The position numbers and the translations under genes are program-made. A stretch of 27,003 nucleotides of DNA from Planctomycetota bacterium (GTDB lineage Bacteria > Planctomycetota > UBA1135), in NCBI GenBank assembly GCA_045047305.1, contig JASFYO010000055.1:1-27003 (forward strand), in the 5' to 3' direction. Position 1 is the first letter of the stretch. Each line of letters starts with the position of its first letter. Shown in pieces: positions 87-20,904 of the stretch. The notes beneath the pieces are model-generated. The model made no database searches, was not told the DNA's origin, and worked only from the letters and a program-made list of their open reading frames with translations.

Positions 87-1076
87 TTAGGAGTGGTTAA
101 ACAAAGATAGCAGCATGTCCGCGGCAGCAGTCGGCGGCATCGCACCGGAGACGACGGCCTGCTCCACTTCTGCTAGCTTGGCCTGGACCGCTGGGCTTGC
201 CTGAAAGGTGGCGAGTAAGCGCTCTTCGATTTGTGCCCACATCCACCGCCCCATTTGTTCCTGGCGATGGCTCTCAAACACACCGGCCTCCGCACGCAAG
301 CGTCGATGCGCAACCACCACCTGCCATAGCTCCTCTAGGCCATCGCCAGTGAGGCCTGAAAGGCAAACGGCTTTCGGGGTCCAACACGCATGGCGCGGAG
401 TGAGGTAATGCAAGGCGTTGGCGTAATCACGCATCGAGCGCTCGGCACGATTCACGTTATCGCCATCAGACTTATTCACGGCGATGACATCTGCGAGTTC
501 GAGGATGCCTTTCTTGATGCCTTGCAATTCATCGCCGGCTCCTGGGAGCATCAGCACCAAAAAGAAGTCGACCATGTCGGCGACCACCGTTTCCGACTGG
601 CCGACGCCTACCGTTTCAATGAGGATGACATCGAATCCAGCGGCTTCACAAAGGAGCATGGATTCACGGGTGCGCCGGGCAACCCCACCTAGAGTGGTAC
701 CGCTAGGGCTCGGGCGAATGAAGGCCGTGCTTTCTTGCGCTAAACGATGCATACGCGCTTTATCGCCAAGAATACTGCCACCACTTAGCCGACTAGAGGG
801 GTCGACGGCTAAAACCGCAACACGTTTTCCTGACGAAGCAAGTTGCATGCCAAAGGAATCGAGAAACGTGCTTTTTCCGACTCCCGGAACTCCAGTCACA
901 CCAATGCGCGCCGCTTTGCCTGTGTCTGGAAGTAACTCCGTCAACAACTCCTGAGCATGAGCATGGTGCGCCGGCAAAGACGACTCCACCAAGGTAATCG
1001 CACGCGCAAGCAAGACTCGGTCGCCGCGACGAATGCCGTCGGCGAGTTCTTGCACGGTGGGAAGGGTTGGTGGCAT
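87..1076 (-). CDS. meaB: Methylmalonyl-CoA mutase-associated GTPase MeaB (ArgK family)
   Basis: LARAITLVES, Walker A GVPGVGKST, AVDPSS..SGGSILGDK, ETVGVGQSE, GDELQGIKKG and NKxD motifs. Adjacent to mutB. Confidence 0.97.
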   Translation of the reverse strand: MPPTLPTVQELADGIRRGDRVLLARAITLVESSLPAHHAHAQELLTELLPDTGKAARIGVTGVPGVGKSTFLDSFGMQLASSGKRVAVLAVDPSSRLSGGSILGDKARMHRLAQESTAFIRPSPSGTTLGGVARRTRESMLLCEAAGFDVILIETVGVGQSETVVADMVDFFLVLMLPGAGDELQGIKKGILELADVIAVNKSDGDNVNRAERSMRDYANALHYLTPRHACWTPKAVCLSGLTGDGLEELWQVVVAHRRLRAEAGVFESHRQEQMGRWMWAQIEERLLATFQASPAVQAKLAEVEQAVVSGAMPPTAAADMLLSLFNHS

Positions 1077-1083
1077 GCTTGGA

Positions 1084-3219
1084 CTAGGCCTGCAACTTTT
1101 CCAACAGAGACAAAGCGGCTTGCGGGATCACTGTACCGGGCCCGAAGACATCGGCGGCGCCCATTTCTTTGAGCGTGTCGTAGTCCTGCGGCGGGATGAC
1201 TCCCCCGACCACAATCAGTATGTCTTTGCGGCCGAGCTCGGCAAGGGCATCGCGCAGGGCTGGTACCAGAGTTAAGTGTCCGGCAGCCAGCGAGCTTACC
1301 CCGACGATATGCACATCGTTTTCCACCGCTTGACGCGCGGTTTCTTCTGGGGTTTGAAAGAGTGAGCCTATATCGACATCAAAGCCAAGATCCGCAAATG
1401 CCGTTGCGATTACTTTTTGACCACGGTCATGGCCATCTTGCCCCATCTTTGCGACCAAAATCCGCGGACGTCGGCCATGGCCGGATTCGAAGGCTGCAAC
1501 TTGGGTGCGCACGGCCGAGAGTTGTTGGTTGTCCCCCACCTCGCCACTGTACACGCCCGATATGGTCTGAATGGTCGCTTGATGGCGCCCATACACATCT
1601 TCGAGTGCCGAGGTGATTTCACCCACGGTCGCTTTGGCGCGAGCCGCAACCACCGCCAGCGCCAAGAGGTTGCCCTCGCCTGATTTCGCGGCCTCGGTGA
1701 GTGAAGCCAAGCTTGCACTGACATCTTCTTGATTGCGTTCCTCACGCAACTGCTTTAATCGGCTCAACTGTGCTTCACGCACCTCTTGATTGTCGACCGA
1801 ACGCACGGGGACTTGCTCTTCCTCCTCCAACACAAAACGGTTCACGCCAACAATCGTGCGTTGCCCGGAATCGATGCGCGCTTGCGCCCGTGCCGCCGCC
1901 TCTTCAATGCGTAACTTAGGGATACCGGCCTCGATAGCTTTGGTCATGCCACCTAAACTTTCGACCTCCTTGATATGCTCCATCGCGCGGTCGGCCAAAT
2001 CTTGGGTGAGACGTTCCACGTACCAACTACCACCCCAAGGATCTGCCGGACGACAAGTCCCCGATTCTTCCTGCAGCTGAATCTGCGTATTACGCGCAAT
2101 GCGTGCGGAGAAATCGGTAGGCAAGGCAAGCGCTTCATCCAAAGAGTTGGTGTGCAGCGATTGAGTGTGCCCTTGGGTGGCTGCCATGGCCTCCACGCTG
2201 GTACGCACCACGTTGTTGTACACATCTTGAGCAGTCAAGGACCATCCTGATGTCTGCGAGTGAGTGCGCAACATGCTCGACTTGGGGTTTTTGCAATCAA
2301 ACTCTTGCATGAGCTGATGCCACAGCAAGCGTGCTGCACGAAGCTTGGCCACTTCCATAAAGAAATCCATGCCAATCGCCCAAAAGAAACTCAAACGTGG
2401 TGCAAAGGCATCCACCTCTAAACCCGATGCAACTCCAGTACGCACATATTCCAAGCCGTCGGCCAGAGTGTAGGCAAGTTCGATATCGGCGGTCGCGCCA
2501 GCTTCTTGCATGTGATAGCCAGAAATCGAAATGCTGTTGAAACGCGGCATGTGCTCTGCGGTGTAAGCAAAGATATCCGCGACGATGCGCATGGATGGTG
2601 TGGGCGGATAAATGTAAGTGTTCCGCACCATGAACTCTTTGAGAATATCGTTTTGAATGGTGCCAGCAAGCTGCTCTGGCTTCACTCCTTGCTCCTCCGC
2701 CGCAACAATATACAGCGCAAGGATTGGCAAGACTGCGCCGTTCATGGTCATCGACACGCTCATTTTATCCAGCGGGATGCGGTCGAACAGAATGCGCATA
2801 TCCAAAATGGAATCAATCGCAACTCCAGCCATGCCGACATCCCCAGTGACGCGTGGATGATCCGAGTCGTAGCCGCGGTGCGTAGCGAGGTCGAATGCGA
2901 TGGACAAACCTTTTTGCCCGGCCGCCAAGTTGCGACGATAAAACGCATTCGACTCTTCGGCGGTACTGAAGCCGGCGTATTGACGAATGGTCCATGGACG
3001 TCGGACGTACATGGTGGTGTAGGGTCCGCGCAGATACGGCGGGAAACCTGGCTTAGAATCCAAGGCCGGGGACGCAGCTACATCTTGCGGTGCATAATGC
3101 TCCATCACCGAAATACCTTCCGGACGTTTGAAGCTTTGACGCTCCTCCTTTGCAGCCTTCGCAGTGACCTGCTCGGGATCGGTCAGGGGAACTTCTCGAA
3201 AGTTAGGTATGGAACTCAT
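1084..3219 (-). CDS. mutB: Methylmalonyl-CoA mutase, catalytic (large) subunit
   Basis: [10 protein letters not shown] (Tyr specificity residue), [24 protein letters not shown] and the B12-binding motif [10 protein letters not shown]...SSLAAGH. 711 aa. Confidence 0.98.
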
Positions 3220-5159
3220 GCTGAGACCTCCAGCAGAGAATCCATCAATGCGGGGATATTGGTGCGTAAATCAAGACAAGTAAGACTTTCGTCTTCCAGC
3301 TTAGGCCGTCCGGCAATAAGAATGCGCGCGCCAACCGCTTTACACTTTGCAATCGCAGCTTCCAATTCGCTTTGATAAACCCCATCGCTGCCACAAATAC
3401 AAACGACGCCGGGGGCTGGCTGCTCGACGCGGGTGGTGGTCACGCTGGCAGTGGCGAAAAGAGTTTGCGCAAAACCAAGGCGGCCGGCCGCAGAGGCTTC
3501 GCTACCAAGCGCAAAAAGTTGCACCTCAAGATCGGCGCAACGCTCACGCAATTGCTCAAAGACTTCAGCGTCGCGCTGCGGCCAAAGCGGCTGCATACTT
3601 GGCCCTCCACAATTCGCGGGCAAACTATTACGCTGCGCTTCTGTAAGTGCAAAAACATCGGCGCCGTCTTGCGCAGCGCTTAACAAATCGTCCATGGCAT
3701 GGTCCACGCGCATCACGCACGGAGCAGACGCTTCCCATGTCTGCATGCGTTTTTTCTCGGGGTTGCCGACGTATGGCTTCACCACCGGAGCGGAATCCCC
3801 AAGAGGCGGATAACTGGAAACTCCCGTCATCGTAAGCCGGCGGGTAGCCAGTAGATGCTTGCGCTTTCCAGTTTGCACGGTCATTTGTGCGGCGACCCAA
3901 CCACTGCGTAAGGCTGCAGCCATGCCTCCTCGTGCTTCAATTCTTTGGAAGAACGCCCAACCCTCCTGCGCTAATTCCTCCGTAAGAGCCTCAAACACAT
4001 AAGCACCTCCTGCTGGATCCGCGACGTCGCCTAAACGGCTTTCTTCAGCAAGGATGATTTGCGTGTTACGCGCAACGCGACGTCCGAGTGTGGATGGAGC
4101 ACACAGCACTTCATCGTAGGTACAAGTGGTGATGGCATCTGCGCCTCCAAGAATAGCGGCAAAAGTTTGCGTGCTAGCACGAAGCTGATTGGTCCAGGGA
4201 TCACGTCGGGCAAGCGAACGCCGCGAACCAATCGCATGAATCCATGGAGCTGGAATATCCTCAACAGCACAAGCCTGCAAAATGCGTGACCACAAACGTC
4301 GGGCGGCGCGCATACCAGCAATGGCAGGGAAGACATCGCGATCAACTGCCATACGTAAAGCTATGGATGGCGCCAATTGGGATGGGGCTACGCCGATCGA
4401 CTCCCCCAGCTGCAGATAGTGCACCAAAGTGGCTGCCATCAGTCCAAGCTCTTGTGCCAAGCTAGCACCCGCGTTGTGATAGACCTCAGTGGAGATGGTC
4501 ATGACCCGGGCTTTCGGCATGTGCGCGGCACACCAAGTCATCAAGTCTCCGACTTGATGCTTCATCGCTTTGGAACCTAAGGGCAACAGCCCGTCGCGCG
4601 CGAGAGAAGCCAAAGGATCCAAGCCCAGGTTCCACGCAAGCGAAGCGATATCCATACCGCGATTCTTAGCCAAACAGATGAGTTGTGCCAAACTTGCCAT
4701 GGTGTTGGCGCCTGCGTCTAATTCCAAATGCACCATTTCAAGATGCACACCATCCAGGGCAGCGTGCCAATCCTGGGCCGTCCACAACATGCAACCGCCA
4801 TCGCCCCATGCTTCCTTACCTATTTCTGAGGTTGGTGCTTCCCCCAGACGAGCACAGGCATCAAGTTGCAACCATAAAGCATTGGTGCCGCCCGGCAAAT
4901 CCTGCAGCAGGGCCTCACGCAAGCTTTCGGGATGAGGCAAGTCATAGCGCGGAGCATTGCACCAAGCAGCATCGGCGTGGGCGGCCGTACCGCGCACAAA
5001 AGGAGCCTGCCCGATTTCTTCTTGCAGGTCCAATCCATGCAAATCGGAGGCAGCATAAAGAGGAGCCAGCGTAATACCAGCGAAGGCGTCGTCCATCAGA
5101 GCGCGATCAAAATCCGCACCCTTCAACTCCTCTTCAACGCGTTTGCGCCATGTTTCCAT
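3216..5159 (-). CDS. mutA: Methylmalonyl-CoA mutase small (non-catalytic) subunit
   Basis: [51 protein letters not shown]. Lacks DxHxxG as expected. Its TGA stop overlaps the mutB ATG (ATGA, 3216-3219). Confidence 0.93.
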
Positions 5160-5168
5160 GGCAAGATT

Positions 5169-5726
5169 CTACCCTTGCGTAACGCGCATCTCGGCTTCCA
5201 AATCCACACCCAAACCATCTGCCAGACGATTCACGTAATTGAAATAGGCCACCACCTGGCAGGCGTCGTGAATCTCTAGGTCACTCCAGCCAAGGTCGCG
5301 CAAGCGGAGGACGTCGGCCTCTTGCATGGAACCTGGCGTGCGCGTGAGTTTGCTTGCATAAGCACACATCTCGCGCTCTTTTTCACTTAAGGGTGCCGAT
5401 TGCCAGCCCTTTTCGAGTAATGAATCTGCAATTTCTGAGCCGCCAACCTCAACACGGAGGTCGCCTGCATGCGCAAAAGTTCAGTAATGGCAGTCATTTT
5501 CCTGGCTCACCACCACCGCAAGGGTTTCCCGCAGCCGCGGCTCAAGGCTCGAGTCAGCTGCCATCACACTGCGATACAGCCCCATATGAGCCCTAGTCAT
5601 ACCCCCGTTCAGGCTAGTTAGGCGGACAATGTTCCACACTCTCCCAGCCCGACGAAGGGCGTCAGCAAAGATTTTTTTGACTACCCCTTGGGCATCTTGG
5701 TCCGCAATCTGTTGAATCCACGCCAT
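5169..5726 (-). CDS. AhpD/carboxymuconolactone-decarboxylase-like peroxidase-related protein, probable selenoprotein (185 aa, Sec at codon 82)
   Basis: ORFs 5481..5726 and 5169..5369 are in frame and joined by 37 open codons after a single TGA (5481-5483). Read-through gives RETLAVVVSQENDCHY-U-TFAHAGDLRVEVGGSEIADSLLEKGWQSAPLSEKEREMCAYASKLT...VVAYFNYVNRLADGLGV, matching the AhpD CxxCxxxH core and the family's C-terminal FNYxNR motif. Confidence 0.88.
5444..5463 (-). promoter_or_regulatory. Candidate bacterial SECIS hairpin
   Basis: Minus strand CGACCTC-CGTGTT-GAGGTTG: a 7-bp stem (one G-U pair) with a 6-nt loop and G at loop position 2. The stem starts 17 nt and the loop 24 nt after the in-frame UGA. 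Confidence 0.65.
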
Positions 5727-5848
5727 GGGAGAAGGATAGCAGTGCCAACAAGTGATTTGAATCTGTAGAGAAGCTTCAGAAAGGCAGCTCCCCCTGCCGA
5801 AAAGGAAATGTCCGCTCCCCCACGCGGGCTTTTACCCATCATCGATAC

Positions 5849-7645
5849 GTGATTGCATTCATAAAGGACCTAGTGCGCCCTCCCAAAACGGAAGGGAACG
5901 ACCACTCTTTAGAGGCTGCGCGCTATCGCATGGTCAAAGGCCTAGCTTTCGGGCTGTGCCTGCTAGCGCTGTTCTATATTGGTGTCGACATACGCGAAGG
6001 CGCCAGCGTCTTTTCCCTGGGCATGATGGGGCTTGTAGGCATGGCTGGAGTGATTCGGGTCATGGTCCACCGCCAGCGCCCGATTGCAAAAATCGGCCAA
6101 GTCATCACCGTAGGCCTATTTTTGGCATCCACTTTTGTCACTTTGCACAACGGAAGTGCTGACGCGGCATCGATTGCATGGTTTGCCTTGTTGCCGCTGT
6201 GCTCCGCCTTATTGACCGGACCAGCCGCTGGCATGGGCTGGGCTGCCGTCAGTTTGGTAAGCGTTTTGGTTTTGGGCCAACTGAATCAATTTGGCATAGA
6301 ATCCTCTGCCGATCTCGCCGGGCATAGCCAATCCATCTACAAGATGCTCGAGAACTTAATCCTTCTCGCTGGTGTCGCGTTTCTAATGAGTGGTTTCTTA
6401 GCGGAGCATCATCGCAAGCAAAAGGAGATCGACGACGTCACCGAGGAGCTCGACCGCGAACGCACTGGGCGCGCAGCCGCAGACCGTCGCGTGCACGAAA
6501 CTTTGCAGGTCCAGAACCAGATTCTGGCCAAAGTTGGCAGTGAAATGCGCGTACCGTTGACCGGCATTCAGGGCATGACTCGGATGCTACATGGCACCGA
6601 AATGGACCAAGTGCAACGCGATTACGCGGAAGCGATTTCTGCTTCTGGAACCGCTCTGATGGAATTACTAGAGGATGTCCTAGACTTCTCTCGCATTGAA
6701 TCTGGAGAACTAGAACTCGAGTACAAGCCATTCGATATTGAAGTGGCTGTCGCTGGCGTCGCCAAGCACCTTTCCCAAGGCGCGCAATATCACGGAGTCG
6801 AAATACTTCTACGTTTTGCGCCGAAGACCCCGCGCTTTTTCACTGGTGATGCCGGACGGATTCAACAGATCCTGGGCGCCTTGGTGAAAAATACCATCGG
6901 CCTGAGCGAAGAAGGCCACGTGCTAATCGACGTCGAAGAAATGGACACGGGTGACCGCAAATCAATGATGCGTTTCCACGTACGCGGCTCGGGCAAGAAC
7001 CTTTCTGTCGAAAAACGCACCGCTTTGCAGATGAACTTCCGCGAAGGCGAAGCCGATGCCGGAGCTCAAGGCGGCAATGGATTTGGCCTTGCACTGAGTC
7101 AACGCATTCTCGGCCTCATGGGCGGAGAAATGGGATTCGAGCACGATAACGACAACACGGACCTGTGGTTCGATCTAGAGCTGCCGCATAGCCGCGAGCC
7201 AAAGGTGACCAACCTGTTCTCCGGAAACCTCGCAGGCCTCAAGGCCCTGGTGGTGGAAGACAACGCCTGCAACCGCGAAGTTTTGGTCGAACAGCTCATG
7301 GAATGGGGCGTGCAGCCAATCCTCGCATCCAGTGGCCAAGAGGCTTTGAAAATGATGCGCGTCGGACTCGACGACCGTTGCCCCTTCCAGCTTGCAGTCA
7401 TCGATCATCAACTGCCCGACATGGACGGCAAACGTCTCGGCATGATGATGATGAGTGACCCCATTCTCGAATCCTGCTGCATGGTTTTGTTGACCTCAGA
7501 AGCGGGCCCTGGAAGCAGCAAGGAATTCCGCCGTGCTGGATTCAGCGCCTACCTTGCTAAACCGGTCACGCCGAGCATTCTGCGCGACACCCTTGCGATG
7601 GCTTGGGGACTGCAGGAAGAGAAACGCGCGAAGGCAAAAACTTAA
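5849..7645 (+). CDS. Membrane-bound hybrid sensor kinase/receiver protein with a degenerate kinase core
   Basis: About 5-6 hydrophobic helices, HisKA-like ILAKVGSEMRVPLTGIQG and LLEDVLDFSRIESG, HATPase-like GDAGRIQQIL and GGNGFGLALS, and a C-terminal REC domain (VVEDN, VIDHQLPDMDG, LLTS, YLAKP). Confidence 0.9.
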   Translation: MIAFIKDLVRPPKTEGNDHSLEAARYRMVKGLAFGLCLLALFYIGVDIREGASVFSLGMMGLVGMAGVIRVMVHRQRPIAKIGQVITVGLFLASTFVTLHNGSADAASIAWFALLPLCSALLTGPAAGMGWAAVSLVSVLVLGQLNQFGIESSADLAGHSQSIYKMLENLILLAGVAFLMSGFLAEHHRKQKEIDDVTEELDRERTGRAAADRRVHETLQVQNQILAKVGSEMRVPLTGIQGMTRMLHGTEMDQVQRDYAEAISASGTALMELLEDVLDFSRIESGELELEYKPFDIEVAVAGVAKHLSQGAQYHGVEILLRFAPKTPRFFTGDAGRIQQILGALVKNTIGLSEEGHVLIDVEEMDTGDRKSMMRFHVRGSGKNLSVEKRTALQMNFREGEADAGAQGGNGFGLALSQRILGLMGGEMGFEHDNDNTDLWFDLELPHSREPKVTNLFSGNLAGLKALVVEDNACNREVLVEQLMEWGVQPILASSGQEALKMMRVGLDDRCPFQLAVIDHQLPDMDGKRLGMMMMSDPILESCCMVLLTSEAGPGSSKEFRRAGFSAYLAKPVTPSILRDTLAMAWGLQEEKRAKAKT

Positions 7646-16555: not shown

Positions 16556-17056
16556 ATGAAAACTAACAGACAATCCGGCTTCACGATCATCGAGATGTTG
16601 ATCGTGGTCACCATTCTGGCCATGTTGGCCGGAATTTTGATTCCCGTTCTTGAGGATGCAGCAAAATCCTCCCGCGACTCGCGTCGTGCCTCTGACTTGA
16701 AGACTATGCAGACTGCACTTGCTAGCTTCCACCGCGTCAACGGCGCTTACCCTGACACTTCTGGTGCATGGCAAGGCGATGCTACTGGAGTTGGCAGCAA
16801 CCACGGCTACGGTGTCACTGGCGGCTACTGCCCAGGTCTTGTACCTGACTTCATGCCAGCATTGCCGAAGGATCCAAGCCCGGATCTTCCAGATGCAACC
16901 AACGGCTATCAGTACCGCTCCGACGGCATTGATTACAAGTTCTCGGCCAAAGGTGGTCCTGAGACCTTCCCAACCGGTAACCCGTTCTTCGATTCGCAAG
17001 ACTCCACTACCGTATGGTCGATCAGCACTCCTGGCGGCTACAACTGGGCCAACTAG
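16556..17056 (+). CDS. Prepilin-type N-methylation domain protein, GspG-like (copy 1)
   Basis: Class III signal QSG|FTIIEMLIVVTILAMLAGILIP, followed by RDSRRASDL, G.YP, LPKDP and YQYRS. Confidence 0.9.
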   Translation: MKTNRQSGFTIIEMLIVVTILAMLAGILIPVLEDAAKSSRDSRRASDLKTMQTALASFHRVNGAYPDTSGAWQGDATGVGSNHGYGVTGGYCPGLVPDFMPALPKDPSPDLPDATNGYQYRSDGIDYKFSAKGGPETFPTGNPFFDSQDSTTVWSISTPGGYNWAN

Positions 17057-17075: not shown

Positions 17076-17110
17076 AACCGCCGCCCCGTTTGGGGTGGCG
17101 GTTTCTCTTT
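17076..17110 (+). terminator. Probable intrinsic terminator between the two prepilin genes
   Basis: AACCGCCGCCCC-GTTT-GGGGTGGCGGTT, a 12-bp stem (one G-U pair) followed by TCTCTTT. Confidence 0.75.
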
Positions 17111-17143
17111 GGTTTCCGTGCAAATATTCCGATAAAGAAAAGC

Positions 17144-17653
17144 ATGAAAACGATGCGCCTCTTTGCTCCCCTCGCACGTCGAGGCTTCACGATTATCGAA
17201 ATGCTCATCGTGGTGACGATTCTTGCCATGCTGGCTGGAATCCTGGTACCTATCCTGGCAGAGGATGCGGCAATTGCTCGTGATGGCAGACGCGCCTCGG
17301 ATTTGCGCTCTGTGGCTTCTGCTTTAGCCAACTACAAAGACCGCAATGGTGTTTACCCCACCACTTCTGGCACCTGGCAAGGAGACGCTGGCAACTACGG
17401 AAGTTTGGATTACGGCACCAGTGGCTACATTCCGAACCTAGTGCCCGATTACATTCCATACTTGCCACAGGATCCGGACCCTCAGTTTCCAAACGGAACC
17501 GATGGTGGCTATATGTATCGCTCCAATGGAACAGACTTCAAGTTTGTGATCAATAGCACCCCTACCACGTACTACGTGAGCAACCCCTTCTTCGACCCCA
17601 CTCGCCCCACCATTGGTTGGCAAGTGAGTTCGCCGGGTGGTTACGACTGGTAG
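17144..17653 (+). CDS. Prepilin-type N-methylation domain protein, GspG-like (copy 2)
   Basis: RRG|FTIIEMLIVVTILAMLAGILVP, RDGRRASDL, LPQDP and YMYRS. Clear paralogue of copy 1. Start moved to 17144 (alternative 17153). Confidence 0.9.
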   Translation: MKTMRLFAPLARRGFTIIEMLIVVTILAMLAGILVPILAEDAAIARDGRRASDLRSVASALANYKDRNGVYPTTSGTWQGDAGNYGSLDYGTSGYIPNLVPDYIPYLPQDPDPQFPNGTDGGYMYRSNGTDFKFVINSTPTTYYVSNPFFDPTRPTIGWQVSSPGGYDW

Positions 17654-17778: not shown

Positions 17779-20700
17779 TTATTCCGTAGTGAAGGATATT
17801 TCTAGGTTTTGATTTGGGATTGCGGTTACGTAGATTGGGTCTTGGACGAGTTGGTATTCGAATATTTCAGGTCCACCCTGCCATTGATGGAATTCCACTC
17901 GGTAGTTGCCCGGTAGGAAGGATGGGATGTTGATTTGCCAGCTGGGTTTCGCTGGATCCAACCAGATGCCACGCTCCAAAGGCTCGGCTTGCGAAAATTC
18001 ACTTGCATCATCTAAGTTGTAAAAAAACGCTTGCATCTGTTGGCCAACCATGGCCTCGTTGTAAGGGATATCCACCGTCGCCGATGTCATCCTTGGAACC
18101 GAAACCACGTATTCCTCCATTCCGGCAGGAATAAGTACCTCTCCTTTTGCCCCACCCAGTTCCCACTTTAAGTGGAACGAAGATCTTGGGTTTTGGGCAA
18201 GCACATAGCCACCGTTGTCTTGCTCTGACCCGTCCATGTTCTGGCCTGGACTCTGGATCCAGCCGTCTAGGTAGTTTTTTCCTTCGGAATCCCGCAAGAA
18301 AACTGTGACTACGCGTTCTGGCTCCAGCACCAAGGTGAGTCCTTCTCCACTTTGGCTCGGTGCTAGATTCTCCAAGATTTGAGCGGCATAGCCTGCTTTG
18401 GAAACCCGCATATCAATCTCCGTTGCGTTTAACCCCCCAAGGTGGAATAGGCCATCTTGCTTGGTTAATGCCCGCCCCAGAGTTCCATCCGGACTCGGAA
18501 GGTTGACTTCCACATTCCCAAGCGGGTTCCCCGCTTGATCGGTAACCAATCCAGAAATCTGCAATGGCAATCGCTCGAAACGCAACTCTATTTCCTTCCA
18601 TTCGCCTTCCATCATGGTAATGGATTCTACGTTTGTGAATGCTTCCCCCTTCCGAGTAGAGAGTTTGAATTGAAGCGAGGTTTCCGTTTGTAGCCCCCAA
18701 AGCAGGACCTCGTTCTGATTGGCTTCCAAGGCAACAATTCGGTACTGCATTCCATTGCGAGTCCCCCCATGCCAATAGCTGCGTTTCGATTCCTCCCGCC
18801 TCAAATCTCCATTGAGAGAATTCAAACCAGAGTTTCCCTTCCAATAAACATCTTCTTCCGACTCAATCCACAAATAGACCTCTCCCAAATCCACCCCCTC
18901 CGGCAAATCCCATTTCACTCTCATCTTATTGGCGGGTTCCAGTTGAACTTCAAGGGTTTGCCCTGAGGATTCAGGGAGTTCCGCCGCCAAAGGCCTATAG
19001 CCAGAGGCTGCAACCAAGACTTGCGTGGTGTCGTCGGCAAGAAAAGCGGTGGTCTCGCCTGCATCGTTAGTGCGTTCTGCAATTTCATAAGTTTTCACCA
19101 AAGCACCCTTTAACGCTTGCCCGTTTTCATTGAGCACTCGAACGGATAGTTCTTTACGTTCCCCCACAGCAAATTCGCCAAGCTCCCATGGATTCTCACG
19201 GAGACCTAAATCCATTTTTGCGAACTCGACATCTGCCCATTCCCCGCATTGAACAAGGCTCACTTCGGCGGCGTACGGGCGGACAAGATTTGCGTCTTCG
19301 CTCCAAGCGATGCGCTCCTTTTCACTGCCCACCGAAACGGGCACTCGAAAGTAACCGTCTGCATCGGACACGCCGCCCAAACCAAACATAGATCCGGGTT
19401 CATCCCGCGCGGCCGTGAAGTAAGGCTGCACAATTACCCCAGCATCGGCCACGCCCTTGGTGCCATCGGGAGTCACCACACGTCCCGAAAAGTAAGGTAG
19501 CTCCATCACCTGAATCACAAGGCTTGTGGAAAGTCCCTTCAAGTGGACAAAGTCTCCCATCCCTCCAACTTCTCCTTCGCTAGACGCATAAGCAATAAAC
19601 CCGCGCGGGACTTTCAAACGCCCTTCCCAATTGCTTGGTAACCCACGCACGGTAAAACTTCCATCAGGCTGCAGAGGGATATAGACGCCAATCATGGAGG
19701 CCCCCCTTTCTTTCAGCTGTTCTTTCACCGATAGCGGCATCTCTTTCGGACTTTGTAGCGTCGGTGAAATATGCCATAGGACAAAATCCGTCCTATCGGC
19801 TTGAGCTCGTTGAAACTCAACGCGTCCAGACAAGGCAAAGCCCTCTTTTAATTCAATCCGGATCGGATCACCAACAAATTCCTCAACCCGATGCACCACG
19901 CGATAACCCGGAGCGAGCACTGCAATCCCGCCGCTGCCAACGCAAGCTTGTAAAGTTGCTTGCCCCGATGCATCGGTAGTTTTCTCTTCGCGCAACTCTT
20001 CTCCAACCCAAGGTACAAGGCGCACTTGAGGCACAGGCCGACCGGCAGCATCTACAACCGTAACTGCAACGGATCCTGCTTGTGATAGGCCGGAAGCAGG
20101 CTCTACCATTCTCGAAATTTGCTTCGTCCCAGGCTCCTTTTCGGCTGAAAGTATCGCAACCGGAAGTGACACAGTTGGAGCCGACGCGATTTCCGCAGGA
20201 GTCTTCACATCCTCCTTGCTCTCCCAAGGAGCTACGGCAAAAAGGGTAATCAGTGCCAGGGCAGCAAGGCTCCCCGCTATCTTTGTTTTCATAGTCATCG
20301 CTACTCCAAGAGTGATGGCACCGACGGGCGCCGTTTTGAGTGGAATGCCGAAGATCATGCACCGTTGCCGCCAATCGCCGCCAACGCTCGCAGTAAGTTC
20401 CTGGCGCATGAGCAAGAGGCCGCGTTGCAACCTCGCATGGACTGCTGATTCCGAAACCTGCATTTGCTCCGCGATTGCGCGCAAAGTGAGTTCCTCAAAG
20501 AATCGCAGATACAAGGTGGTCGCAAAGGGCTCCTCCAACGCAGACAAGGCAAGCGCAAGTTTGCGGAAGGTATCCATCCGCTCCACCAAGTGATCCGGCT
20601 GATGCGCAGCTTGCGCTTGCGTCTCCACATTCCACTGACTTTGCGCCACGAACTGCTCACGCCGCCGACGAGATTTTTGCTCCCGCCAATGCATACCCGC

Positions 20701-20904
20701 AACATTGCGCACCACCGAACCAAGCCATGCACGCGGGTTGGCACCATGCTTTGGCGGATGCTCCACTGCTGCTAACCAAGTCTTTTGCTCGAGGTCGTCA
20801 GCAGTAGCCCGGTCGGATACCAGACTTGCAGCCAAAGCGCGCACCCACCCACCATGCTCCAGAAGAGCTTCTAAGTTTGGCTTGGAGGATGAGGGATTCG
20901 TCAT
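17779..20904 (-). CDS. ECF sigma factor with a transmembrane helix and a large C-terminal extension of carboxypeptidase-regulatory/Ig-like domains
   Basis: Sigma2 (WVRALAASLV..ADDLEQKTW, RAWLGSVVRN), sigma4 HTH (LYLRFFEELTLRAIAEQM..SESAVHARLQRG), hydrophobic IAGSLAALALITLFAVAPW and repeated G.V.D..G.P...V / T...G.F modules. Confidence 0.88.
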   Translation of the reverse strand: MTNPSSSKPNLEALLEHGGWVRALAASLVSDRATADDLEQKTWLAAVEHPPKHGANPRAWLGSVVRNVAGMHWREQKSRRRREQFVAQSQWNVETQAQAAHQPDHLVERMDTFRKLALALSALEEPFATTLYLRFFEELTLRAIAEQMQVSESAVHARLQRGLLLMRQELTASVGGDWRQRCMIFGIPLKTAPVGAITLGVAMTMKTKIAGSLAALALITLFAVAPWESKEDVKTPAEIASAPTVSLPVAILSAEKEPGTKQISRMVEPASGLSQAGSVAVTVVDAAGRPVPQVRLVPWVGEELREEKTTDASGQATLQACVGSGGIAVLAPGYRVVHRVEEFVGDPIRIELKEGFALSGRVEFQRAQADRTDFVLWHISPTLQSPKEMPLSVKEQLKERGASMIGVYIPLQPDGSFTVRGLPSNWEGRLKVPRGFIAYASSEGEVGGMGDFVHLKGLSTSLVIQVMELPYFSGRVVTPDGTKGVADAGVIVQPYFTAARDEPGSMFGLGGVSDADGYFRVPVSVGSEKERIAWSEDANLVRPYAAEVSLVQCGEWADVEFAKMDLGLRENPWELGEFAVGERKELSVRVLNENGQALKGALVKTYEIAERTNDAGETTAFLADDTTQVLVAASGYRPLAAELPESSGQTLEVQLEPANKMRVKWDLPEGVDLGEVYLWIESEEDVYWKGNSGLNSLNGDLRREESKRSYWHGGTRNGMQYRIVALEANQNEVLLWGLQTETSLQFKLSTRKGEAFTNVESITMMEGEWKEIELRFERLPLQISGLVTDQAGNPLGNVEVNLPSPDGTLGRALTKQDGLFHLGGLNATEIDMRVSKAGYAAQILENLAPSQSGEGLTLVLEPERVVTVFLRDSEGKNYLDGWIQSPGQNMDGSEQDNGGYVLAQNPRSSFHLKWELGGAKGEVLIPAGMEEYVVSVPRMTSATVDIPYNEAMVGQQMQAFFYNLDDASEFSQAEPLERGIWLDPAKPSWQINIPSFLPGNYRVEFHQWQGGPEIFEYQLVQDPIYVTAIPNQNLEISFTTE

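Follow-up and report, generated by a model that had tools for sequence, protein, structure and literature searches.

A UGA-interrupted AhpD-like gene of a planctomycete as a probable member of the known CxxU selenoprotein family

Introduction

Two short open reading frames on a planctomycete contig stand in the same frame and are divided by a single TGA and a short run of sense codons. The question raised by this locus is whether they are two genes, the remains of one, or a single gene whose internal TGA is read as selenocysteine (Sec). They lie in the window, the whole stretch of 27,003 nucleotides that was analysed, and were first taken, from the sequence alone, for the halves of an AhpD-like selenoprotein gene. 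We conclude that the locus is very probably one intact AhpD-like gene, with the UGA specifying Sec and the product a CxxU enzyme of antioxidant-type function. The features on which the argument turns are collected in Table 1.

Results

An AhpD-like reading frame interrupted by one TGA

Translation of the minus strand gives a frame that opens with ATG at 5726, closes with TAG at 5171..5169 and has as its sole in-frame TGA codon 82 (5483..5481), in the context NDCHY-U-TFAH; on the plus strand of 5169..5726 the frame is closed by several stops. Under table 11 the upstream piece is called as an ORF of 81 residues (5481..5726), and the first ATG, GTG or TTG past the TGA is the ATG of codon 120, which leaves 37 sense codons in between. 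The original prediction of a single 185-residue gene, split by one TGA and free of other lesions, agrees with this translation; its coordinates, and the TGA and 37 sense codons that it placed between the ORFs, are exact, and only the minus strand had been left unstated. It had also anticipated that standard annotation would yield two fragments, and public protein sets indeed hold the halves as separate entries of 101-132 residues each. Reading through the TGA mends an annotation that the databases have cut in two. Rough substitution counts against six relatives gave pN values of 0.09-0.28 for the upstream half and 0.18-0.26 for the downstream half, with pS at 0.68-0.91; judged by these counts, both halves are under purifying selection.

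Separate database entries are also what one would expect if the locus encoded two polypeptides, of 81 and 66 residues, the second restarting at Met120, that assemble with one another. That arrangement would leave codons 83-119 without translation, although His86, Leu90 and Arg91 are all kept in 30 of 30 related loci. Moreover, Met120 is present in only two of the eight closest aligned sequences, the break in the loci checked is always TGA and never TAA or TAG, and the model of the read-through protein is one compact fold. We judge a split gene to be very improbable.

Table 1. Positions of the features discussed, given in the window unless a contig is named
Feature	Position	Strand	Evidence or remarks
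AhpD-like gene, TIGR01926 peroxidase-related family	5169..5726	-	185 codons and TAG; profile scores, fold model
TGA codon 82, predicted selenocysteine, second position of CxxU	5481..5483	-	Aligned to Cys in 6K40, 2OYO, 2PFX, 3C1L and Cys homologues; TGA in 30/30 close loci
Cys79, first Cys of CxxU, predicted resolving residue	5490..5492	-	Cys in 29/29 readable loci
Glu67, proton-relay Glu equivalent (Glu118 of M. tuberculosis AhpD, Glu36 of PA0269)	5526..5528	-	29/30 loci; precedes the first Cys by 12 residues, the spacing of the relay in PMC3141380
Tyr81, equivalent of relay His132/Tyr50	5484..5486	-	30/30 loci
His86, equivalent of relay His137/His55	5469..5471	-	30/30 loci; between the TGA and any restart codon
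SECIS-like hairpin	5444..5463	-	7-bp stem CGACCUC/GAGGUUG, loop CGUGUU, G at second loop position
mutA-like small subunit, methylmalonyl-CoA mutase, meaB	87..5159	-	Context; probably outside the system
17 candidate selenoprotein genes (L053-L069)	Contigs C3, C7, C10, C13, C23, C28, C29, C34, C44, C45, C56, C73, C82		Family match across the TGA
FG-GAP/ASPIC-UnbV (CRTAC1-like) genes	C63:2548-5670 (L112), C63:171-962 (L142), C17:7-660 (L143)		In-frame TGA; outside the window

Family, fold and predicted active site

Profile searches gave the read-through protein a score of 129.7 bits against TIGR01926 (cut-off 81.8) over residues 3-174. It also passes TIGR00778 (30.2 against a cut-off of 27.8) and PF02627 (41.1 against 23), and the latter match reflects the common fold. 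NF041238 (CFYUT, alkylhydroperoxidase-related (seleno)protein) and NF053654 (YciW-related) describe the same superfamily and match weakly, at 51.9 and 25, far under their respective cut-offs of 175 and 310; the protein is a member of neither. Two other assignments were rejected. Gamma-carboxymuconolactone decarboxylase proper is described as having neither CxxC nor the relay (PMC3141380), and both are present here, the motif as CxxU. Mycobacterial AhpD proper, the AhpC reductase, was set aside for a protein that has its motif in the N-terminal half and no adjoining ahpC gene; peroxiredoxin genes lie on other contigs.

An AlphaFold model, built from an alignment of 20 sequences with Cys substituted for Sec, is all-helical and forms one compact fold (pLDDT 92.6). 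Its best fold match is 6K40 (TM 0.90), the structure of DR1765 from Deinococcus radiodurans, which at 38% identity is also the closest experimentally tested relative. In the alignment, 6K40 and the other nearest solved relatives, 2OYO, 2PFX and 3C1L, all have Cys opposite the TGA, as do the Cys homologues, which bears out the proposal that the TGA stands for the second Cys of the AhpD/CMD motif. The five-residue proton relay of AhpD, formed by Glu, Cys, Tyr/His, Cys and His (PMC3141380), has its equivalents in E67, C79, Y81, U82 and H86. These residues are carried by model helices 63-76 and 80-92, a two-helix hairpin, and the four that flank the TGA are conserved (E67 29/30, C79 29/29, Y81 30/30 and H86 30/30 loci).

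The fold also brings in a different selenol chemistry, namely that Sec82 would serve a reductive dehalogenation of the Bmp8 type. Bmp8, an AhpD-fold debrominase, matches the model with a TM of 0.80 and 19% identity; a deiodinase-like Sec candidate is present in the same genome; and the substrate-binding site of AhpD-like proteins is given as not known in PMC3141380. The DR1765-type proteins nevertheless fit far better (TM 0.90, 38% identity). A literature search on Bmp8 or debrominases together with AhpD found nothing. A D. radiodurans mutant without DR1765 is sensitive to H2O2 and is complemented poorly by CxxC variants (reviewed in PMC8945050), and PA0269 of Pseudomonas aeruginosa has weak peroxidase activity (PMC3141380). 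By analogy with such relatives, the AhpD-like CxxU protein is likely to reduce peroxides or protein disulfides.

Conservation of the TGA among relatives and across the phylum

Matches were found in 32 of 41 related genomes, and the best 30 loci were extracted, comprising the locus itself and 29 from other genomes at 40-78% protein identity. Column 82 is TGA in all 30, which rules out chance or an assembly error as its source. In two paralogues that score lower and contain no stop, the column reads TGT or TGC, and eleven named loci, which may overlap the loci in other sets, have TGA in nine cases and TGC in two. The seven closest named homologues, 56-78% identical, all come from Planctomycetota MAGs, as befits the planctomycete-like host that had been suggested. 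It had been allowed that close relatives might all have Cys, with no conserved TGA or hairpin; they keep both.

A sample of 301 genomes drawn evenly from the phylum contains 108 with a match at E <= 1e-25, and a TGA is contained in 131 of the 132 matches. Its column was confirmed in 28 new loci, with TGA in 28/28, and in genome G212. In Planctomycetota this AhpD-like subfamily usually takes the Sec form (107 of the 108 matching genomes in the 301-genome sample). The fragmentation of the host genome, in 91 contigs, might be held to favour an assembly error, or the gene might be a pseudogene. But the same TGA stands in the 29 loci of other genomes and in the 28 phylum loci, and purifying selection acts on both halves, which carry no other lesion; this explanation is exceedingly improbable.

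Within the phylum sample, selA is found in 105 of the 107 TGA-form genomes against 122 of the 194 others, a comparison among kin that are not independent, which would inflate any test. The only genome with a no-stop match alone, G058, has TGT in the column, and none of its selA, selB, selC and selD matches is over cut-off. In G099 selA was not found; there are two selB and two TGA-containing selD copies (C294, C261). G212 (90% complete, 140 contigs) has the TGA and an intact hairpin in its AhpD-like gene (C69:7355-7900, L102), but selA, selB and selD all failed to reach their cut-offs there and the match to the tRNA-Sec family is a tRNA-Leu; a missing contig, mis-binning or a recent loss could explain this exception. 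We also observed, at G150:C15:64551-66451, a TGA-form AhpD-like match convergent with a selA match, the ends of the two lying within ~20 bp. Three full-length database homologues (P0026, P0030 and P0035) have Trp in the Sec column, probably through read-through of the TGA by a gene caller under another table.

Selenocysteine machinery of the host

The use of Sec by the host, which the original prediction implied, is supported by the genome (2.83 Mb in 91 contigs, 87.7% complete). Matches to selA (397.5 bits), selB (280.5 bits) and selD (299.5 bits) are all over curated cut-offs, and a tRNA-Sec with anticodon UCA scores 75.6 bits. The selD gene has an in-frame TGA of its own and clusters with selC and selA on contig C29; selB is on C10. 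In C29:98240-106277, selD and the tRNA-Sec are accompanied by a 461-codon frame that overlaps the tRNA, with selA ~4 kb off; we take the product of this frame to resemble glutamate-cysteine ligase. Among the 41 relatives, selB is over cut-off in 38 and a tRNA-Sec match is present in 40, the anticodon being checked in the host's own genome only. Marginal RF01852 matches were not accepted as selC, because that of G212 is a tRNA-Leu and one of the two in G099 a tRNA-Ser. Sec machinery and selenoprotein candidates in planctomycetes have been reported before (PMC4807772).

These data bear on whether a reassigned code or a suppressor tRNA might place Cys or Trp at the UGA, a reading to which the Trp in three database proteins and the TGA form in G212, with its Sec machinery undetected, would lend themselves. 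TGA terminates 336 of 1177 long frames in the host genome, however, and the genetic code is therefore not reassigned. The only UCA-anticodon tRNA found is the tRNA-Sec, alongside a normal tRNA-Trp(CCA) and tRNA-Cys(GCA), and the TGA tracks selA across the phylum. With the Trp proteins more likely to be the work of a gene caller, we consider decoding as Cys or Trp highly unlikely.

A SECIS-like hairpin downstream of the UGA

A hairpin (Table 1) starts 18 nt after the UGA, with its loop starting at 24 nt, and these dimensions (6-nt loop, 7 bp, 24 nt) conform to the bacterial SECIS criteria set out in section 5 of PMC13188914. The folding energy of +10..+52 is -14.5 kcal/mol. Folding energy was rejected as evidence for a SECIS, the 84-nt region being no more stable than shuffles (z = +1.05), and 11% of synonymous recodings of this gene alone also yield the full stem. 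The case for the hairpin therefore rests on its conservation. Leu90 is CTC in 29 of the 30 loci and Arg91 is CGT in 26, against 29% and 10%, respectively, elsewhere in these genes, a codon constraint that none of the other conserved degenerate positions (57 in all) reaches. The full 6-bp stem occurs in 20 of the 30 loci; 2000 synonymous recodings that left the proteins unchanged gave 2.2 such loci on average and 9 at most. In the phylum loci the pair +21/+34 is C-G in 20/28 and U-A in 5/28, a thin covariation; in this register, no more than 3-4 of the 7 pairs are preserved in some of the distant TGA loci. By these comparisons the predicted SECIS-type hairpin after the UGA is under strong synonymous constraint, and the AhpD-like genes supply a well-conserved SECIS for the lineage.

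The proposal that a UGA at the catalytic Cys position means Sec is thus supported by the host machinery, the conserved TGA and the conserved hairpin, and on this sequence evidence we hold it almost certain that codon 82 is decoded as selenocysteine.

Gene neighbourhood

The mutA-like gene, whose score is below the TIGR00642 cut-off, starts 9 nt past the AhpD-like stop codon, so that co-transcription of the two is plausible; it probably forms one operon with the genes for methylmalonyl-CoA mutase and meaB. Upstream lies a divergent hybrid sensor kinase. A scan of positions 5000-6000 found no promoter and a single terminator-like site, which lies inside mutA; neither count departs from chance.

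The 9-nt spacing might point to a role of the AhpD-like selenol in the upkeep of the adjacent B12-dependent methylmalonyl-CoA mutase, again a non-antioxidant use of Sec. Examined with flanks of <=1.5 kb, however, the link to mutA is found in 6/30 close loci (its own, four of the same genus and one other) and in 0/28 phylum loci, and the remaining neighbours vary freely among loci. On these counts we read the AhpD-mutAB-meaB arrangement as local synteny and reject it as a functional module of general occurrence. Sec with non-antioxidant chemistry, be it Bmp8-like dehalogenation or mutase upkeep, strikes us as unlikely, and the preferred reading remains a CxxU enzyme of antioxidant-type function.

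Elsewhere in the window, 16556-17056 (-) and 17090-17653 (+) are divergent paralogous genes with the prepilin-type N-terminal motif GFTIIEMLIVV, and their products are presumably pilin/GspG-like. The frame at 17779-20904 (-) encodes a 1041-residue protein, in which an ECF sigma factor seems to be linked by a membrane helix to a long extracytoplasmic part.

Candidate selenoproteins and respiration of the host

A screen of the genome for further Sec genes reduced 40,906 TGA-containing frame pairs to 72 by a coding-score filter, after which candidates were picked by eye, both among the 72 and in lists of motifs; it was not exhaustive, and the counts are lower bounds. In 17 of the 19 candidates scanned, a family match spans the TGA at a Cys-type motif. 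They comprise AhpD-like 2, SelD, FdhA, MsrA, a thioredoxin-like protein with two Sec residues and a VPGU motif, two Ogt, Prx, Bcp, an ArsC-like, a deiodinase-like and a DUF3179 protein, and five Trx/TlpA-like proteins. Candidate C49:19296 proved to be two adjacent genes, BolA and Grx4, C20:24068 was dropped with no family match, and about ten other in-frame neighbours were set aside by eye as ordinary gene pairs.

Three FG-GAP/ASPIC-UnbV genes are additional. Their TGA falls within the motif D-L/V-U-S-x-F-W-R and is followed by a hairpin. The family occurs in 26 of the 41 relatives, where 56 of the 62 matches contain a TGA. In each of the 26 TGA loci that were examined the codon falls in the same column, and in most a hairpin accompanies it; the five loci inspected that have no stop encode Asp, Glu, His, His and Asn at this place, not Cys. 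Table S9 of PMC4807772 lists the family, the main text of the 2026 catalogue (PMC13188914) does not mention it by name, and a literature search on FG-GAP/ASPIC-UnbV selenoproteins found nothing relevant. With these three and the AhpD-like gene, the host total comes to at least 21 candidate selenoprotein genes and 22 UGA codons.

The distribution of some candidates is uneven. For one Ogt gene (C13:527-1066), 24 genomes have a match and 10 of these, namely all 9 of the genus and G011, carry a TGA; the Prx gene (C44:4071-4619) carries one in 13 of 24, including all 9 of the genus, with 6 close sister-genus orthologues having no stop. In sister genera both genes mostly do without the TGA. One Trx-like protein has a TGA in 18/18 matches (all three counts take a TGA within the match, whatever its column). 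The patterns for Ogt and Prx suggest a genus-level gain of Sec in place of Cys, or losses elsewhere.

A cbb3 oxidase subunit and NirK are over cut-off in the host and an aa3-type subunit is just under, and from these we infer that the planctomycete probably respires oxygen. At C44:9464-12856, on the contig of the Sec-Prx candidate, NirK stands beside a vWA-type gene and a short heme-copper-family subunit, which is likely an NO reductase. Aerobes rarely retain selenoproteins according to a 2026 review (PMC13188914), and at least 21 candidate genes in a small genome with O2 reductases is unusual for a presumed aerobe; the number is well below the 46-63 selenoproteins of the top ten in BSepDB.

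Discussion

Predicted mechanism

In the mechanism that we propose, SelB would bind the hairpin, with its loop 24 nt downstream, and bring Sec-tRNA to codon 82. If selenium were short, translation would stop at 81 residues, with the loss of His86 and the C-terminal helices. In the complete protein a Glu67-water-His86 relay would flank Sec82, which would attack a peroxide or disulfide; Cys79 would then resolve the adduct to give a Cys79-Sec82 selenenylsulfide. In M. tuberculosis AhpD the attacking residue is the second of the motif. Our search of the AhpD literature found no statement of which cysteine attacks first. A dithiol donor would then reduce the selenenylsulfide again; as with mycobacterial AhpD (PMC8945050), this donor is most likely a lipoyl protein.

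More tentatively, the gene could be one link in an almost all-selenium antioxidant and repair network of oxygen-respiring planctomycetes, in which Sec-AhpD would supply electrons to Sec-peroxiredoxins, a 2.8-Mb genome would sustain at least 21 Sec genes, and Sec would still be being gained in the genus. We think this possible but rather doubtful. If true, such a network would contradict the notion that selenoproteins are seldom kept by aerobes, and the orphan marine AhpD-like, Prx and Trx-like selenoproteins known from GOS would gain a named host.

Comparison with known systems

AhpD-like CxxU selenoproteins were described in 2005 from the Sargasso Sea survey, with 27 sequences (PMC1088965), and 299 were found in the GOS survey (PMC2398784); in 2006, two sequenced genomes had such a protein (PMC1794560). 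'AhpD-like protein, TIGR01926, CxxU' is a catalogued selenoprotein family (PMC13188914, PMC9312934), and BSepDB has a family page for AhpD-like selenoproteins (PMC13326102) and may already list this gene. Table S9 of PMC4807772 has no entry named AhpD-like, and one P1 entry is given merely as 'hypothetical'. The rarity that the original prediction ascribed to AhpD-like selenoproteins was thus overstated; with the family described since 2005, the gene call is real but ordinary. The gene adds to a family known for twenty years and is no new kind of system, its TGA form being present in about a third of the phylum sample (107/301). Of greater significance than the gene is its host, with its many candidate selenoprotein genes. 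A literature search for biochemical studies or assays of a Sec-form AhpD found none, and a comparison of the Sec and Cys enzymes would show what selenium contributes to this fold.

The two-helix hairpin and five-residue relay of M. tuberculosis AhpD and P. aeruginosa PA0269 are shared with the protein described here, which likely employs the same kind of thiol chemistry. The motif of M. tuberculosis AhpD is located C-terminally and its gene shares an operon with ahpC (PMC3141380), whereas here the corresponding residues are 67-86 of 185 and the gene is flanked by mutA and a sensor kinase. The resemblance is closest in structure to DR1765 (6K40) and to 2OYO, 2PFX, 3C1L and 2PRR, with TM values of 0.86-0.90 and 24-38% identity. 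The DR1765-type structures share the relay E-x11-C-x-Y-C-x3-H, although their motif is CxxC and that of the AhpD-like protein CxxU. With the family 'AhpD-like 1' (COG2128/TIGR01926, CxxU) the agreement extends to the same HMM over cut-off, the same CxxU motif, the pairing of a Sec form with widespread Cys homologues and a SECIS-type hairpin inside the coding sequence. Only the host and context differ, here a Planctomycetota genome with the full machinery.
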